Shown here: in pieces, positions 111 to 10,948 of the stretch | Numbering within the stretch: the stretch's first letter is position 1 | Layout: every line of letters starts with the position of its first letter | Source: Promethearchaeota archaeon | Lineage (GTDB): Archaea; Asgardarchaeota; Thorarchaeia; Thorarchaeales; Thorarchaeaceae | Length of the DNA stretch: 12,489 nt | Assembly (NCBI GenBank): GCA_027031765.1 | Contig: JALVPN010000129.1 | Location: forward strand, 1 to 12,489 | Direction of reading: 5' to 3' | The notes under the pieces: generated by a model | Told to the model about the DNA's origin: nothing | Database searches by the model: none | Seen by the model: only the letters and a program-made list of their open reading frames with translations | Program-made: the position numbers and the translations under genes

Positions 111-432
111 CTCCATGACCCCATCTTTACGGTCATTGACCGGGCCAACTGTACGTTGTTCCTATGTTGTCGACACACAGCCCCTGACCTACGAAGACCA
201 GTCCCAATGGCACACGTATGAGCACGGTGGGAATATTGCTGGGCCCGGTCCCGGAACAGGAGCTAGACCGGCTGGGCACAGTGGTCGACAGGTAGGTGCG
301 ACATCAGGCATCCCGGAAATGGTGGGTTCGGCCCACACAGTGTTGGTGTGCTGATACTTGGCACCAGCGTCGTTGCATATGGTCTGGGATACTAGCAGCG
401 TAGGGCACACTGTCGTGCGAGACCCACACTCT

Positions 433-448
433 GCAAATGTTCATATAC
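433..448 (+). promoter_or_regulatory. Possible BRE/TATA promoter of the 205-aa gene
   Basis: gcaaatgTTCATATAcg about 40 nt upstream of the TTG at 486; AT-rich island in GC-rich DNA. Imperfect match to the archaeal TATA consensus. Confidence 0.3.
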
Positions 449-485
449 GCATCCTACAACTAGTGCATGCCTGGGGTGTACACTG

Positions 486-1103
486 TTGTCCCTCCCTTCT
501 GCGCCAGACGAGTCACGGGCAGACGTTGAAAAGCTCATAGTGCAAGCGTTCGGCCACTCCATAATCGAGTTCGAAGCAGTACTCTTCCACAAGTTCCTGA
601 TCTTGGCTGGCCCCGACTCTGTGATGACGCAAGAGATGTTCAGAGGGTATCTTGCCAGCATGCAGTCCAAGGGCTTTGTATCGCCCCTTGAGTTCATGGG
701 CAAGCCCGCATGGAAACGCCTTGTTATCGACACCGACACTGTTGTCATAGAACCGTCATCTGCTGGACAGCCGGCCCCGGCAGCCGAGGTGCACCGCCCG
801 ACCACTCCGGTGGCACCCGCTGTGCCCGAGAGGCTAGTCACAGAGTCGCGTGCCATCGCCCGTGATATTATCACGTTCCTCAAGTCGCGGTCTCCCGACG
901 GGGAGTTGACACCCGAGATGCGACACTCGCTCCGCCTCCATGCTGAGAAGATGCGACGGGCCCTGTCCGTTTCCCGGGACGAGTTCATGAACTATGTGGA
1001 AGAACACCTCCCGTCCCTCCTACCGCGCCTTGAGCAGCTCCTCAACACAAAGGGCGAGGACATACTCCTGCTAGGTCTGCGGATGGTGGAGATTGGCCAG
1101 TAG
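486..1103 (+). CDS. Hypothetical protein, 205 aa: probable N-terminal winged-helix domain, Pro/Ala linker, C-terminal helical domain
   Basis: Long ORF with natural globular composition and a PAPAAEVHRPTTPVAPAVP linker. The pattern QEMFRGYLASMQSKGFVSPLEFMGKPAWK resembles a recognition helix plus wing. TTG start uncertain; no family recognised. Confidence 0.75.
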   Translation: MSLPSAPDESRADVEKLIVQAFGHSIIEFEAVLFHKFLILAGPDSVMTQEMFRGYLASMQSKGFVSPLEFMGKPAWKRLVIDTDTVVIEPSSAGQPAPAAEVHRPTTPVAPAVPERLVTESRAIARDIITFLKSRSPDGELTPEMRHSLRLHAEKMRRALSVSRDEFMNYVEEHLPSLLPRLEQLLNTKGEDILLLGLRMVEIGQ

Positions 1104-2328: not shown

Positions 2329-2337
2329 GGGATGGGG

Positions 2338-2452
2338 TGGCAGGCGCGCGGGAAATCGTGGTATTCCCCGGCAGCGGGGTAATCCCGCGACCTGGAGGGG
2401 GGAGTTTCGTAATTGAGGGCATGTAACGAAAAACCAGCCCACGCACCTGCCA
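2338..2452 (-). ncRNA. Putative structured non-coding RNA (115-nt three-way junction), family unknown
   Basis: 15-bp closing stem TGGCAGGTGCGTGGG / CCCGCGCGCCTGCCA with two G-U pairs on the minus strand (C-A mismatches on plus). Arm 2392-2437 has CTGG/CCAG and TTTCGT/ACGAAA stems; arm 2356-2390 has an apical CCCCG/CGGGG stem. Upstream TATA and downstream pyrimidine tract. Confidence 0.6.
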
Positions 2453-2506
2453 TTGTTACTTACAGCTGTTACATCTTGTAGCTCTAACCCACACTCGTGG
2501 GGGCGG

Positions 2507-2520
2507 CTTATTAAGGTTTG
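2507..2520 (-). promoter_or_regulatory. BRE/TATA upstream of the structured element
   Basis: caaacCTTAATAAg on the minus strand, similar in layout to caaagGTTATATt before tes. No convincing CDS lies directly downstream. Confidence 0.55.
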
Positions 2521-2711: not shown

Positions 2712-3158
2712 TCATAGTGGTCGGAGGAGCCACAGCTTTCTGCTCTCAGACAGCACCATCAGCAACGAGACCGCACACAGGCCGTAGAACATCAGGTCGC
2801 GTGGGCCCGGTGGGCACTCGGCGAACAGGGCTATGTAAGCCACCAGCATGCCCGCGATGAACGTCGCGAGGAACAGGAACCTTGGGAGGAGTGTCCTGCC
2901 CACCCTGATGAACAGGGACAGTGACCCAATACGGACGTCTCGTGCCACAGAGTAGTTGCCATGTGCATCCTTGCTGACTAGACCCATCTCCACGAGTTTC
3001 GTGAGGTGATGCAGGGCGAGATTGGGACTCGAATAGCCGAGCTCCCTCTGCACCTCTCGTACCCCCATCGAGTCGCGTGTGAGAAGAAGTGCGTAGACGC
3101 TCATTGTACGTCCCCTGAGGAGGTCTGCAATGGCCTCCTTGTCCAGTCCTTCGCTCAT
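2712..3158 (-). CDS. Membrane-anchored winged-helix transcriptional regulator, 148 aa (N-terminal wHTH plus two C-terminal TM helices)
   Basis: MGVREVQRELGYSSPNLALHHLTKLVEMGLVSKDAHGNYSV is an archaeal ArsR-like wHTH, followed by hydrophobic FLFLATFIAGMLVAYIALFA and LMFYGLCAVSLLMVL. ATG 3158 chosen over 3257 because GGTGA lies 7 nt upstream. Confidence 0.88.
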   Translation of the reverse strand: MSEGLDKEAIADLLRGRTMSVYALLLTRDSMGVREVQRELGYSSPNLALHHLTKLVEMGLVSKDAHGNYSVARDVRIGSLSLFIRVGRTLLPRFLFLATFIAGMLVAYIALFAECPPGPRDLMFYGLCAVSLLMVLSESRKLWLLRPL

Positions 3159-3402
3159 CACGTTGTCACCGTGTTGATGTACTGTTCTTGCAGCCCAGCC
3201 TGTTAACCATTGCCATCCACTGGTAGTGTCCATCAAGCGGTCGTACAGTACCGACACTAGAGTCCCAGTGCCCGGCGGCTGTCAGGGTAGGTGGCGACCG
3301 CCATGCCTGTCCGAGTGCTGGTGTGAAAGTCCTGTCGTGAGGGTGTGGGGCCGGGAGGGGCCCCGGTTCTTGGTGCCCTCCGATGGACACTCTGGTGCCC
3401 GT

Positions 3403-4203
3403 CTATGTCACAGGGTACGGCACGTTCTCGGTCGTGACATCGTACAGCATGGACAGGAACCCCTCAAGGTGTCCGTCCTCCTGTAGCCAGTAGACCTGCT
3501 CGCTGAGGCTCTCTATTGCAGGCCACCCCTCGTCGGTGAAGGTCTGGGACCACGTCCCGTTGCGGATTATGACGAGGTTCTGCGTCGCGACAAAGCCCAG
3601 CTCGAACATTGTGCCGTCGTCAAAGCATATCTCAAGGAAGAGGGTGATTGATGACAGCCCAAAGCTCCATATGTCGGTGCCTGGGGGTGGCGGGTCTGTT
3701 GCATCCGGCATCAGCTTGATACCATCGTCCACGAGGGCACCGCCCAGAGCCTCGTAGGTCGCGCTCTCAATACGCGCCACGCCAGTGAGGTTGGCATAGT
3801 AGGGTGCAAAGAAGAGCCGGATGTAGTCCCCAGTACCGTTGCTGAACATGGACAGGCCGTCGACATACGCCCCCGGATGGGTCTGCCGATAGAACTCGGT
3901 CAAGTTGCTGTTCACAAAGGTGCAGTTGCAGCTCCAGTAGAACACGATATCGTCACGACGACTGTTGAGGTACTGTGCTGCAAGGGCTCCGTATCCTCCT
4001 GACGGCCCGGTCGTTGTCGTTGTTGTTGTCGTTGTTGTCGTTGTTGCCGTTGTCGTTGTGCTTGTCGTTGTGATCCCCGTACCGTTGTTTCTTGGCATAT
4101 TTGAGACCCATGCAACGCCGGCGATGAGGCCGGCCGCTACGACAATCCCTATGACGACCGACAGGGTGAGTGTCCTTGTCACACTGCCATTGTATTCCTT
4201 CAT
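3403..4203 (-). CDS. Membrane-anchored surface glycoprotein with Thr-rich linker, 266 aa
   Basis: N-terminal TM/signal anchor (LSVVIGIVVAAGLIAGVAWV), 19 Thr in a 21-residue linker, six N-x-S/T sequons after the anchor. ATG 4203 has GAGGTGA 8 nt upstream; GTG 4215 is an alternative start. Confidence 0.88.
   Translation of the reverse strand: MKEYNGSVTRTLTLSVVIGIVVAAGLIAGVAWVSNMPRNNGTGITTTSTTTTATTTTTTTTTTTTGPSGGYGALAAQYLNSRRDDIVFYWSCNCTFVNSNLTEFYRQTHPGAYVDGLSMFSNGTGDYIRLFFAPYYANLTGVARIESATYEALGGALVDDGIKLMPDATDPPPPGTDIWSFGLSSITLFLEICFDDGTMFELGFVATQNLVIIRNGTWSQTFTDEGWPAIESLSEQVYWLQEDGHLEGFLSMLYDVTTENVPYPVT
4009..4071 (-). repeat. (ACA/ACG)n trinucleotide microsatellite encoding the poly-Thr linker
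   Basis: Codons read directly: TTT-S-TTTT-A-T12, almost all ACA or ACG. Confidence 0.9.
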
Positions 4204-4216
4204 CTCGGGTCTCACC

Positions 4217-7645: not shown

Positions 7646-7747
7646 ATTCGTTGTCCAAAGACCGTACACTCCATCCCGGTCCACCAAGGCCTGTTGGCGG
7701 CTTCTGCTCTGTCACTGTTGTCAAGCAATGGACACGAGGAGGCCATC

Positions 7748-10700
7748 ATGAGTCAACTGGATAAGCAGTACGACCCGCTCGTCGTAGAGAAGGAGGTACT
7801 CAAGTTCTGGGACGAGCAGCGGATATTTGAGAAGACCGTCAGGTCGAGAGAGAAGGGCCCTAGGTGGAGCTTCCTTGAGGGACCACCAACAACGAACGGC
7901 TTCATGCATGTTGGTCATGCCCGTGGTCGGGCCATGAAGGACGCACAGATCCGCTACATGACCATGTGTGGCTACAATGTGTGGAGGCGCGCAGGGTGGG
8001 ACATGCAGGGCCTGCCGGTGGAGCTGGAGGTGGAACGCAACGAGGGGATTGCAGAGAAGGGCCAGATTGAGACTACAATCGGCCTTGACAAGTTCGTCCA
8101 GAAGTGCAAGGAGCTCGTGGACTTCTACCTTGGGAGGTGGGTGCAGGACTCGCAGCGGCTCGGCCTGTGGCTGGACTATGACACTGCCTATCAGACCCGC
8201 AGGGACGACTACATAGAACACGTCTGGCACTTCCTGAAACTGGCAAGCGAGAAGGGCCTCCTGGGACGCGGCTACCGTGTCAACCCGACATGTCCACGGT
8301 GTGTCACTGCCCTCTCCGGCCACGAGGTGTCTCAGGGCTACAAACGCAAGGTCGACCCGTCCATATACGTGAAGTTCCGCCTGGTCGACAGGGAGGACGA
8401 GTTCCTTGTGATATGGACGACGACGCCCTTCACCCTGATATCTAACGAGATGGTCTCTGTGCACCCGGACTACACCTATGTCAAGGTGGACGTCGGGGGC
8501 GAGTACTGGTGGGTTGTGAAGGACCTCCTCGAGACCGTCATGGCAAAGGTCGGCGTGTCCTCGTACAAGGTCGTCGAGGAGCTCAGCGGTAGTGACATGC
8601 TCGGCTGGAAATACGTGCACCCGTTCCTCGAAGAGGTCGAGTGGCACAGGGAGCACCATGAGGAGTACATGCATGCTGTGGTCACTGGGACTCATGTGAC
8701 GGTCGAGGACGGCACCGGTCTCGTACACACTGCGCCGGGTTTTGGCCCTGACGACTTTGAGATGGGCCGCGAGTACGACGTCCCGGTCTTCGTCCCCGTG
8801 GACCCCACGGGCCGCTTCACAGATGAGGTGCCCATGTTTGCCGGCAAGTACGTCTTCGATATGAACCCCGTAGTGTGTGAGATGCTCAAGGAGAAGGGCA
8901 CCTTGGTACATGAGGAGACCATCGAACACGAGTACCCCCACTGCTGGCGGTGCGACACACCGCTCGTATATCTCGCGGACAATACTCAGTGGTTCCTCAA
9001 GATGACCGGTGTCCGTGACAGGCTCGTCGAACGCAACAAGGAGGTGCACTGGACCCCGACATGGGCCGGGTCTGGCAGGTTCGGTGACTGGCTTGCCAAT
9101 GCAGATGACTGGTGCATCTCGCGCTCCCGGGTCTGGGGGTCGCCGCTCCCGGTCTGGGTCTGCACAGAGTGTGGTCACGAGGTCGTGATAGGCTCGCGCA
9201 AGGAGCTGAGGGAGCGGGCAGTGGAGTTCCCAGACGAGTTCGAGATGCACAGGCCCTGGGTGGACAGGGTCGTCCTCAAATGCGACAAGTGCGGGGGCGA
9301 GATGCGCCGTGAGCCCTTCGTGACAGACTGCTGGCTCGACTCTGGAATGGCACACACCGCCAGTGTTGACTACCTCAAGGATCCGTCGCTCTTCAACGAG
9401 CTCTTCCCATACGACTTCATCACCGAGGCCGTAGACCAGTCGAGGGGCTGGTTCTATAGCCTCCTCTACACGTCGGTGGTCATGCATGACCGCGCACCCT
9501 TCAAGGCATGCGTCAGTCAGGAGCATGTCCTTGACAAGGACGGTGGGAAGATGAGCAAGTCGCGCGGGAACGTGGTATGGGCCCGTGACGCTCTCGAGTC
9601 TGTCGGTGCTGACCCCTTCCGGATATTCGTCCTCACAAAGAACGCATCGTGGAACCGCACCAACTACGACCCCGCGGAGATTGAGATGCTTAAGAAGAAG
9701 CTCTCAGTCCTCTGGAACGTGGTGCTGTTCGCCGACACCTACATGGCACTCGACAAGTACCGGTATGATGAGTCGCGGATGCGGGCGGCCCTGTCCGGGG
9801 CGCGGCTGGAGGACAGGTGGTTGCTCTCCAGGGTCCAGAGCACGGTGGAGGCGTACCATGAGGCCATGCGGGCGTACCTGTGGCACCGTGCTGGACGGGT
9901 TCTCCTCGAGTTCGTATCAGAGGACCTGAGCCGTGTCTACCTGCCACTGGTGAAAAAGCGGGTCTGGCTCGATGCTGACGACCCGGAGAAGGTGATGGCA
10001 TATGATGTCCTCTTCTACACCCTGCATGCGGTGGTACGGTGTCTGAACCCATTCACGCCCTTCTTGGCGGAAAAACTACACCGTTCCTTCCTCATGCGGT
10101 ACTGCGACCTCCCCGAGTCCGTCAACCTCACGGACATGCCCCTACCCGACAAGGACTTGCAGGACGATGAGATGGAGGCCACGTTCGACCTCCTTGAGGA
10201 GCTGCGGTCTGCTGCCAGCCATGCCCGCAACAAGAAGGGCGTCAAGCTGAGGCACCCGGTTGCCAGGGTAATGTTCGTACCCGCATCCGAGGACGCCGCA
10301 CGCCGTGCCCGCAGCCTCATCGAGATCCTCCTCCACGACCTCAACACACACGAGTTCGTCGTACTCGACTCGGATGTGGCCGACGAGTTCACACGCCTAT
10401 CAGTGACCCCTAACTTCAAGGCCCTTGGACCGCGCCTCAAGAAGAAGATGCGTCGCCTCACCAAGTTCCTTGAGGAGGAGGTCGATGGTGCGTGGCTTCG
10501 CAACGAGCTCGAGACTCATGGAAGGGCAAAGGTCGTTGTTGACGGCGAGGAGCTGGAGCTCGTGGCAGGCGATGTCGAGTTCCATGAGAGTGTCCCTGAG
10601 AACCTCAGCCTTGCAGAGTGCAGGGCCGGCAAGGTGATAGTGGACGTCACCCGGACGCGCGAGCTTGAGGCTGAGGGCCTGGTCCGTGATGTGACACGGC

Positions 10701-10948
10701 GCGTACAGGTGATGCGAAAAGAGCTCGACCTCAGCGTGGAACAGATGATAGACCTCGTCATACATTTCTCCGATGACGAGTCCATGGAGCTGGTATCGAT
10801 GTTCAAGGACTACCTGTCCAACGAGACCCGTGCCGAGACCCTGCGCCTCGTCGGGCCCTCGGAGGCTGTCGCATGGAAGCGGTGGAACTACTCCGTGGAC
10901 TGGGAGATTGACGGCCGCAAGATAAGGGTGGGGATGACCCCGAAATGA
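7748..10948 (+). CDS. ileS: Isoleucine--tRNA ligase, archaeal/eukaryote type, 1066 aa
   Basis: FLEGPPTTNG-HVGH (HIGH motif, 7907-7918); GWDMQGLPVE; CP1 editing motifs WTTTPFTL and GTGLVHTAPGFGPDD; DWCISRSRVWG; DQSRGWF; KMSKS (9548-9562); type-2 C-terminal EGLVRDVTRRVQVMRK. GAGGAGG RBS (7736-7742) supports ATG 7748 over 7694. Confidence 0.97.
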   Translation: MSQLDKQYDPLVVEKEVLKFWDEQRIFEKTVRSREKGPRWSFLEGPPTTNGFMHVGHARGRAMKDAQIRYMTMCGYNVWRRAGWDMQGLPVELEVERNEGIAEKGQIETTIGLDKFVQKCKELVDFYLGRWVQDSQRLGLWLDYDTAYQTRRDDYIEHVWHFLKLASEKGLLGRGYRVNPTCPRCVTALSGHEVSQGYKRKVDPSIYVKFRLVDREDEFLVIWTTTPFTLISNEMVSVHPDYTYVKVDVGGEYWWVVKDLLETVMAKVGVSSYKVVEELSGSDMLGWKYVHPFLEEVEWHREHHEEYMHAVVTGTHVTVEDGTGLVHTAPGFGPDDFEMGREYDVPVFVPVDPTGRFTDEVPMFAGKYVFDMNPVVCEMLKEKGTLVHEETIEHEYPHCWRCDTPLVYLADNTQWFLKMTGVRDRLVERNKEVHWTPTWAGSGRFGDWLANADDWCISRSRVWGSPLPVWVCTECGHEVVIGSRKELRERAVEFPDEFEMHRPWVDRVVLKCDKCGGEMRREPFVTDCWLDSGMAHTASVDYLKDPSLFNELFPYDFITEAVDQSRGWFYSLLYTSVVMHDRAPFKACVSQEHVLDKDGGKMSKSRGNVVWARDALESVGADPFRIFVLTKNASWNRTNYDPAEIEMLKKKLSVLWNVVLFADTYMALDKYRYDESRMRAALSGARLEDRWLLSRVQSTVEAYHEAMRAYLWHRAGRVLLEFVSEDLSRVYLPLVKKRVWLDADDPEKVMAYDVLFYTLHAVVRCLNPFTPFLAEKLHRSFLMRYCDLPESVNLTDMPLPDKDLQDDEMEATFDLLEELRSAASHARNKKGVKLRHPVARVMFVPASEDAARRARSLIEILLHDLNTHEFVVLDSDVADEFTRLSVTPNFKALGPRLKKKMRRLTKFLEEEVDGAWLRNELETHGRAKVVVDGEELELVAGDVEFHESVPENLSLAECRAGKVIVDVTRTRELEAEGLVRDVTRRVQVMRKELDLSVEQMIDLVIHFSDDESMELVSMFKDYLSNETRAETLRLVGPSEAVAWKRWNYSVDWEIDGRKIRVGMTPK

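Follow-up and report, generated by a model that had tools for sequence, protein, structure and literature searches.

A multi-copy small-RNA gene family of Thorarchaeota with a nearly invariant C-rich core and candidate introns

The locus and the fold of its RNA element

The window, i.e., the whole 12,489-nt stretch of thorarchaeal DNA analysed here, carries on its minus strand, at 2338-2452, an element that a preliminary description had put forward as a candidate structured RNA gene with its own promoter. The BRE/TATA-like element described upstream of it, CAAACCUUAAUAAG (2507-2520), is indeed present in the sequence and recurs at the same distance in the orthologues; it would act as the promoter. 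It is followed by a predicted 5′ leader (2453-2490), the start point of which is estimated from the spacing to the TATA box. The leader holds AUGUAAC, which is complementary to GUUACAU at the boundary between arm and loop of the hairpin in the core; a near-palindrome noticed earlier within the leader (2460-2471) is there but is not conserved. The 5′ strand of the closing stem P1 (2438-2452), as given by the MFE fold and by covariation in the family, leads into the junction CUGGUU (2432-2437), which the alignment shows to be CUAGUU in most copies and in which a conserved tract of four to five U begins. Next comes hairpin P2 (2405-2431; UUUCGU/ACGAAA), known from fold and alignment, with a 15-nt loop that contains the near-invariant CAUGCCCUCA. 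The alignment further delimits an invariant C-rich strand in two parts, CUCCCCCCUCC (2394-2404) and UACCACGAUUU (2353-2363), separated by a 30-nt insertion (2364-2393). The 3′ strand of P1 (2338-2352; fold and covariation) ends in CCA, the A being position 2338, and the pyrimidine-rich trailer (2290-2337), located directly downstream as claimed, starts with CC, which together give the family string CCACC. Nearly all copies have CACC and then a T/C-rich sequence, and the 3′ end of the RNA probably lies inside the trailer. Within the trailer, before the phzF promoter, positions 2298-2325 form a weak tandem repeat with a unit of 5 nt (ACAGG when read on the plus strand; 5.6 copies, score 33).

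Folding of the minus strand (window 2330-2460) gave -57.1 kcal/mol versus -39.8 +/- 3.7 for 200 dinucleotide shuffles (z = -4.64), none of which folded as well (0/200), so that the shuffle test named in the preliminary description was passed; the plus-strand fold is weaker (z = -2.57). The 15-bp closing stem of the MFE fold pairs 2438-2452 with 2338-2352 and contains the two G-U wobbles that had been taken as specific for the minus strand, which become C-A mismatches if read on the plus strand. The 6-bp hairpin with its 15-nt loop and the unpaired C-rich tract were also found where they had been placed. An RNA fold is, thus, present at 2338-2452, on the minus strand. The second arm of ~35 nt that had been described does occur at its place, but it corresponds to the 30-nt insertion, which is missing from the other copies at that site. 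The three-way junction, proposed as a feature of the RNA, is accordingly confined to the window copy, the third arm being absent from the orthologues. The mature RNA is most likely a stem around one hairpin and a long C-rich strand, and not a three-way junction of the 5S type. The window copy is intact except for an A-to-G substitution in the junction and what is probably an endonuclease-type intron.

The conserved U4-5 tract (window 2432-2428, minus strand; all copies) is reached ~20 nt into the RNA, after the closing stem and before the hairpin, and is similar to an oligo-T termination signal of archaea as well as to a U-rich site of the Sm/Lsm type. It could be an archaeal termination signal near the 5′ end of the RNA, which counts against the explanation that we prefer.

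The best-scoring copy of each genome lies between an HMPTM-type radical-SAM gene and a PhzF-family gene, all on one strand, and the order radical-SAM gene, RNA, phzF is kept in about 40 loci. In the window, as in one other genome, the radical-SAM gene and the RNA are separated by two additional genes, which in the window are an HTH gene (2712-3257) and a 270-aa ORF (3403-4215, minus strand). The unassigned ORFs of the window are located at 7694-10948 (plus strand), 3403-4215 (minus strand) and 392-988 (minus strand), one of them encoding 1084 aa, and Pfam offered no convincing match for those of 270 and 198 aa. The earlier claim of a separate TATA box for phzF was borne out: the gene is preceded by its own TATA-like CUUUAAUUAG in the window, and TTAATTAG recurs at that place in the orthologues. 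Upstream of the RNA itself, the motif AAACCTTAATA(T/A)G is found ~57-70 nt before the closing stem in the orthologues L012, L018 and L048, and the paralogues possess either TTTATTAGGAA ~50 nt upstream or a TATA box ~35 nt upstream. The clustered genes beside 40 paralogues include no recurrent family. Since the RNA has its own conserved TATA box, phzF has a separate box and the paralogues occur in unrelated contexts, we consider the RNA an independent gene and not a leader of phzF. It is very unlikely that it represents a cis-acting phzF leader or an element in the 3′ UTR of the radical-SAM gene upstream, as might be thought from the position of the main copy, which is always between these two genes and on their strand. 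This is opposed by the same conserved TATA boxes upstream of the RNA and of phzF, by the scattered paralogues and by the two genes that separate the RNA from the radical-SAM gene in the window.

Distribution and conservation of the family

Among 40 relatives searched at the DNA level, all 24 that belong to the same GTDB family gave matches. The stretches 7-34 and 65-125 of the query match the orthologues as directly adjoining blocks and, therefore, positions 35-64 are an insertion peculiar to the window. The orthologues are ~87 nt long and consist of a genus-specific closing stem, an almost invariant core of ~58 nt, and a CACC tail followed by T/C-rich sequence. With model R1, one to eight copies were detected in 58 of the 61 genomes of the GTDB family, covering 16 out of 16 genera. 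Model R2 detected the RNA in 25 of 26 family genomes and in the only sister-family genome searched, and gave no match in 124 genomes from 25 other families of the phylum, searched with Infernal's stricter filters (0/124). An exact-pattern scan of one genome per species yielded at least 120 loci, nearly all of them titled Candidatus Thorarchaeota, and viral contigs did not contain any match to the family.

The genome studied here carries three copies, i.e., that of the window, one at C113:3545-3632 and a more diverged one on contig C222. Comparison of these sequences makes it very probable that a family of stand-alone small RNA genes is represented three times in this genome, once by the element at 2338-2452 on the minus strand, and that this family, among the genomes searched, is specific to Asgard archaea of the Thorarchaeota type. 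The element had initially been thought to be either an undescribed archaeal non-coding RNA or a small repeated element, and both descriptions hold, as it is a non-coding RNA gene that occurs in multiple copies (three in this genome). Many copies are located at contig ends, which is to be expected from the assembly breaks caused by an identical repeated block of 58 nt. Tandem copies ~250-330 nt apart occur in two genomes of one genus (L009:1143-1228 and 1471-1560; L058:1028-1113 and 1393-1536), and in the upstream tandem copy of L058 two insertions flank the CAUGCCCUCA loop.

The homologue and covariation check suggested for the element was clear: the element has many homologues, and its closing stem shows covariation in all 14 pairs. 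RNAalifold, applied to 19 sequences, detected compensatory changes in eight stem pairs, and both-sided changes occur in all 14 pairs of the closing stem in a 60-sequence alignment (A2) that includes diverged paralogues. In this alignment 96% of the cells of the closing stem are paired, versus 32-51% when the 3′ partner is slid by one to three columns, and none of 500 shuffles came up to the observed values. Alignment A2 was fitted to the model and consequently favours modelled pairs, but an alignment made with MAFFT gives the same picture. The support for hairpin P2 is weaker than that for the closing stem, with both-sided changes in three of its six pairs, seen in diverged paralogues.

While the stem drifts freely, the ~58-nt core is nearly invariant over 16 genera and among several paralogues per genome. 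It holds only five G. Two motifs, (U/A)UGCCCUCA of the hairpin loop and GAAACUCCCCCCUCCUA of the long strand, do not change even in the sister family and in those copies that have diverged most, and both are unpaired in every predicted fold. A subfamily formed by the copy of this genome at C113:3545-3632 and its relatives (L074, L083-L089) has a closing stem that is 9 bp longer (GUGGUCAGG with CCUGGCCAC, over an AA bulge). Its TATA box is located only ~35 nt upstream, and the transcript of these copies probably starts at the stem, without a leader.

A search of Rfam 15 did not produce any match for the window, neither at gathering scores nor locally at E <= 10. The intron-less orthologue and six other loci likewise gave nothing beyond noise of CRISPR-DR18 (13.7 bits, E = 7.5), in line with the novelty proposed at the outset, and no description of the family was found in the literature searched. 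Several readings were rejected. 5S rRNA (RF00001) gave no Rfam match, the orthologues are without the third arm, and the real 5S gene of this genome is located at G000:C217 (58.8 bits); the true SRP and RNase P RNAs are also located elsewhere in the genome. The resemblance to 5S rRNA noted earlier turned out to be spurious: besides the lack of an Rfam match even at E <= 10 and the true 5S gene on another contig, the segment GGGAAUACC crosses the boundary of the insertion. The absence of hallmarks of tRNA and of box C/D and H/ACA RNAs was confirmed. ARAGORN finds no tRNA in the window, and the element has a continuous covarying helix of 14 bp instead of a cloverleaf. The C/D and H/ACA boxes are absent on reading, the 3′ overhang is ACC and not ACA, and the interior is invariant where a guide RNA would have a variable guide. 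Against a Y RNA in a Ro RNP speak the lack of a PF05731 (TROVE) match in the 95%-complete genome, for which controls were positive, and the unconserved sequence of the stem. A CRISPR repeat-like (CreA-type) RNA was dismissed as the match was at noise level, the hairpin is unlike the C63 repeat of this genome and there are no conserved neighbours. K-turn, hammerhead and permuted-tRNA readings were dropped after inspection by eye. The CRISPR array of this genome (G000:C63:4874-5740) comprises at least 12 repeats of 31 nt, starting with GTTTCAACCCTAG and ending with ATTGCAAC, and runs to the end of a 5.7-kb contig.

Three other views of the element itself have to be considered. A tRNA-like or tRNA-derived RNA, handled by RNase P and the CCA-adding enzyme, would account for the terminal helix GGCGGG.../...CCCGCC followed by ACC in most copies and for introns of the tRNA type. 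This is highly improbable in view of the negative ARAGORN result and a 14-bp helix without D, anticodon or T arm; furthermore, tRNA genes in this genome include the complete CCA, while the element has ACC followed by U or C, and in one subfamily the terminal helix simply extends. Even less plausible is a repeat acting at the DNA level, such as a MITE, in which the 15-bp "stem" would be a pair of terminal inverted repeats. The multiple copies and their frequent location at contig ends would fit, but such breaks are expected from any identical 58-nt block present in several copies. In addition, it is the interior that is invariant and the ends that vary, and they do so in a covarying manner, with G-U pairs restricted to one strand, i.e., the opposite of what a MITE would show. 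The main copy is syntenic across genera, and viral contigs gave no matches. Finally, an ATG-initiated ORF of 63 codons (2262-2453) spans the element, and its frame would be kept by 30-nt insertions. Nevertheless, it can hardly be assumed that the locus encodes a small protein, either from this ORF or from an AUG in the loop, because the start codon is missing in most orthologues, the 3′ stem contains indels of one and two bases, there is no synonymous variation over 58 nt, and Pfam was negative for the overlapping ORFs.

The 30-nt insertion as a candidate intron

The 30 nt at 2364-2393 are missing from every other copy at that site, and their removal restores the family string CCUCCUACCACGAUU as it occurs in the other copies. 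In the direction of transcription, the exon sequence ...CCCU followed by CC ends at the presumed 5′ cut; the insertion itself comprises an A, a hairpin of 9 bp (one C-U mismatch, loop of 5 nt), GGGG, and AA, after which the exon resumes with U. The last six bases of the first part of the C-rich strand (2394-2404, minus strand) would, hence, form the 5′ splice-site side, with CCCU in the central helix and two bulged C. The GGGG of the insertion pairs with the exon CCCU to give a 4-bp central helix, and the 5′ bulge, with the cut between CC and A, is present. The 3′ site, between AA and U, is in an open strand and not in a bulge closed by an outer helix, which makes this a relaxed form (HBh′) of the bulge-helix-bulge (BHB) structure.

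Archaeal BHB introns are known from tRNA, rRNA and a few mRNAs (PMC4090602), and the types of archaeal splicing endonuclease have been described (PMC5829648). The tRNA introns that ARAGORN predicts in this genome are 21-31 nt long, and those of tRNA-Thr and tRNA-Gln have a layout in which a 4-bp helix and two bulged bases precede each cut (H(4)+2 / ... H′(4)+2 /, the slash being the cut), e.g., ...CUUG UA / ... CAAG AA / in tRNA-Thr. The insertion at 2364-2393 shares this register. It is like these introns in size, inner hairpin, 4-bp central helix and 2+1 bulge register, and differs from them in that its host gene is neither a tRNA nor an rRNA gene, that the outer helix is missing and that splicing is here a prediction. 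Comparable insertions are found elsewhere in the family: in the orthologue L011 an insert of 30 nt with the same architecture is located 6 nt upstream of the window site, and four further copies have inserts of 30-31 nt after CGUUAC or CGUAA, with the helix CGUU/GACG or UCGU/GCGG. The HBh′ rule fits six of the seven insertion-bearing copies, at four different sites, the exception being a 44-nt insert in L090. A metagenome scan for intron alleles at the same site produced five matches, none of which has the family hairpin and which are, therefore, chance matches. Two genes with an EndA domain (PF01974) occur in this genome, on C38 and C40, and their products would form a splicing endonuclease of broad specificity.

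These features lead us to regard the extra arm at 2364-2393 as a putative archaeal endonuclease-type intron of the relaxed HBh′ kind, and its removal would leave a mature RNA of ~90 nt; we think this somewhat more probable than its opposite. What speaks against an intron is the lack of an outer helix, the C-U mismatch in its hairpin, the L090 insert that departs from the rule, and the negative outcome of the scan for a second allele. That the arm is instead a lineage-specific expansion hairpin kept in the mature RNA, so that the window copy would truly form a three-way junction, seems rather unlikely. The arm is stable and completes a tidy junction, and there is no outer helix between the exons, as a canonical BHB would have. 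On the other hand, it interrupts the most conserved string of the family, its boundaries coincide with the H+2 / ... H′+2 / register of the tRNA introns of this genome, and similar inserts of 30-31 nt in the same register occur at other sites of other copies.

The interpretation as an intron, if true, has wider consequences. Introns at four or more positions in these genes would extend archaeal splicing beyond tRNA, rRNA and a few mRNAs. They would also offer a simple system for studying the gain of endonuclease-type introns. With respect to the tRNA genes of this genome, ARAGORN calls only 37, several of them with implausible introns of 373-1693 nt, and intron-rich tRNA genes are probably under-called. 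A tRNA-Sec gene is located at G000:C107:10649-10739, and all credible tRNA genes of the genome encode CCA.

Possible function and comparison with known RNAs

Judged from the sequence comparisons, this is a real small-RNA gene family of the Thorarchaeota that was previously uncatalogued. Its core is conserved at a level that is usual only for the cores of rRNA, tRNA and snRNA. Asgard archaea are the closest known relatives of eukaryotes, and, to our knowledge, hardly any of their non-coding RNAs have been described apart from those that are universal. Because it is multi-copy, occurs in almost every genome searched of one Asgard class and is extremely conserved in its core, the RNA is a strong candidate for an unrecognised central function. 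The covariance model built for the family could also be used to annotate the blind spots of ~85-130 nt that break Thorarchaeota assemblies and are now left as empty intergenic space.

It is very probable that the gene has its own BRE/TATA and a pyrimidine-rich stop region, and that the closing stem of 14-15 bp, variable but always paired, encloses a hairpin presenting CAUGCCCUCA and an unpaired strand of ~22 nt, AACUCCCCCCUCCUACCACGAUU. For its function we propose the following. The RNA would work through these two exposed C-rich strands, one of which contains CCUCCU, the anti-Shine-Dalgarno string of 16S rRNA. Their partners could be short G-rich stretches, e.g., ribosome-binding sites, to which they would base-pair, or else proteins with an affinity for the 3′ tail of 16S rRNA. 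G-rich patches in the variable 5′ leader would pair back onto the C-rich strands, forming a built-in mask until the leader is opened or removed. This proposal, built on sequence features and on modelled duplexes, is tentative, and we would put its chance of being correct at roughly a third. For the three-tier explanation as a whole, i.e., gene family, intron and C-rich function, we regard the chances as even.

The long strand contains CCUCCUAC, and the 16S rRNA of a relative (G019) ends with GGAUCACCUCCUAC. GAGG peaks at -14 to -11 before the start codons in the genome studied, where the use of Shine-Dalgarno sequences is modest. The leaders have patches rich in G (UGGUAGG, GUAGGAG, GUGGUA, GGGCAU, GAGGG) that are complementary to both fixed motifs in a bipartite and colinear fashion. 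The mean energy of duplexes between leader and core is -16.0 kcal/mol, while shuffled leaders give -12.8 and flanking DNA gives -8.8 (n = 133). With 86 de-duplicated leaders it is -13.6 versus -10.9 for reversed controls (Wilcoxon p about 1e-7), although the p-values are overstated since the copies are related; the excess of complementarity between leader and core is moderate. In MFE folds most copies keep the closing stem and have the leader in a hairpin of its own; the leader pairs outside this hairpin in three of 13 folds and directly with the core in two of those.

Specific targets of the RNA were sought in several ways. Complementary 12-mers to the core in this genome do not exceed the estimated chance number, the copies themselves excepted, and antisense targets in four relatives, allowing up to three mismatches, comprised only the gene copies and noise at the level of the controls. 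Complementarity of the core to the 16S and 23S rRNAs of G019 was, at its longest, no better than that of shuffles. As there is no long complementary target in the genome, in four relatives or in rRNA, any pairing would have to involve short seeds, or the partner would be a protein. In addition, 58 bases that are invariant over 16 genera are far beyond what a base-pairing seed needs, which suggests that the core is a surface for contact with a protein or the ribosome. The invariant core may, therefore, be the protein- or ribosome-binding platform of a housekeeping RNP, in the manner of Y, vault, 6S or SRP RNA, with proteins reading the C-rich strands without any base pairing. We consider this doubtful but nearly as likely as the leader-masked pairing of the C-rich strands. 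It would explain why ~58 nt remain invariant over 16 genera and the paralogues while the stem drifts, agrees with the lack of a long antisense target, and fits an abundant RNA, as suggested by multi-copy genes with strong promoters. However, neither a conserved neighbouring gene nor a candidate for the partner protein was found, the genome does not contain a Ro60/TROVE gene, and the complementarity between leader and core would be left unexplained.

Stand-alone small RNAs with more than one conserved unpaired C-rich motif, complementary to G-rich ribosome-binding sites, are known as RsaE/RoxS in Firmicutes and as sRNA41 in Methanosarcina mazei. The thorarchaeal RNA resembles these in being a short stand-alone RNA with more than one exposed C-rich motif. 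There is no relationship with them in sequence or in Rfam, and the invariant block of the thorarchaeal RNA is much longer. The thorarchaeal gene also differs from them in being multi-copy, in having a closing stem of 14 bp and in possessing a leader complementary to its own motifs, and no specific targets beyond chance were found for its RNA (12 nt or more in the genome; four relatives). Y RNAs share with it a length of ~90 nt, 5′ and 3′ ends that form a long stem around a pyrimidine-rich loop, and a pyrimidine-rich tail, but the thorarchaeal RNA has an invariant loop and a variable stem, the reverse of Y RNAs, and there is no TROVE/Ro60 gene. In the case of 5S rRNA the length is similar and the three-way junction is shared by the window copy alone; the orthologues are without the junction, and there is no Rfam match.

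A more far-reaching reading is that this is an abundant, class-wide housekeeping RNA of the Thorarchaeota that copies the 3′ tail of 16S rRNA (CCUCCUAC) and acts on translation initiation or small-subunit maturation, its gene family having repeatedly gained introns of the tRNA type. We judge this unlikely. Should it hold, the family would be the first one of small RNA genes, outside tRNA and rRNA, for which regular processing by the archaeal splicing endonuclease is shown. At the 3′ end of the 16S rRNA gene of G019 (L097, on contig C2), ~90 nt are inserted between GUAGCGG and CUGCGGAUGGAUCACCUCCU, in the last helix before the anti-Shine-Dalgarno tail. This insertion, which could be an expansion segment or a stack of introns, consists of three hairpins, each with a CAUUUCG loop.
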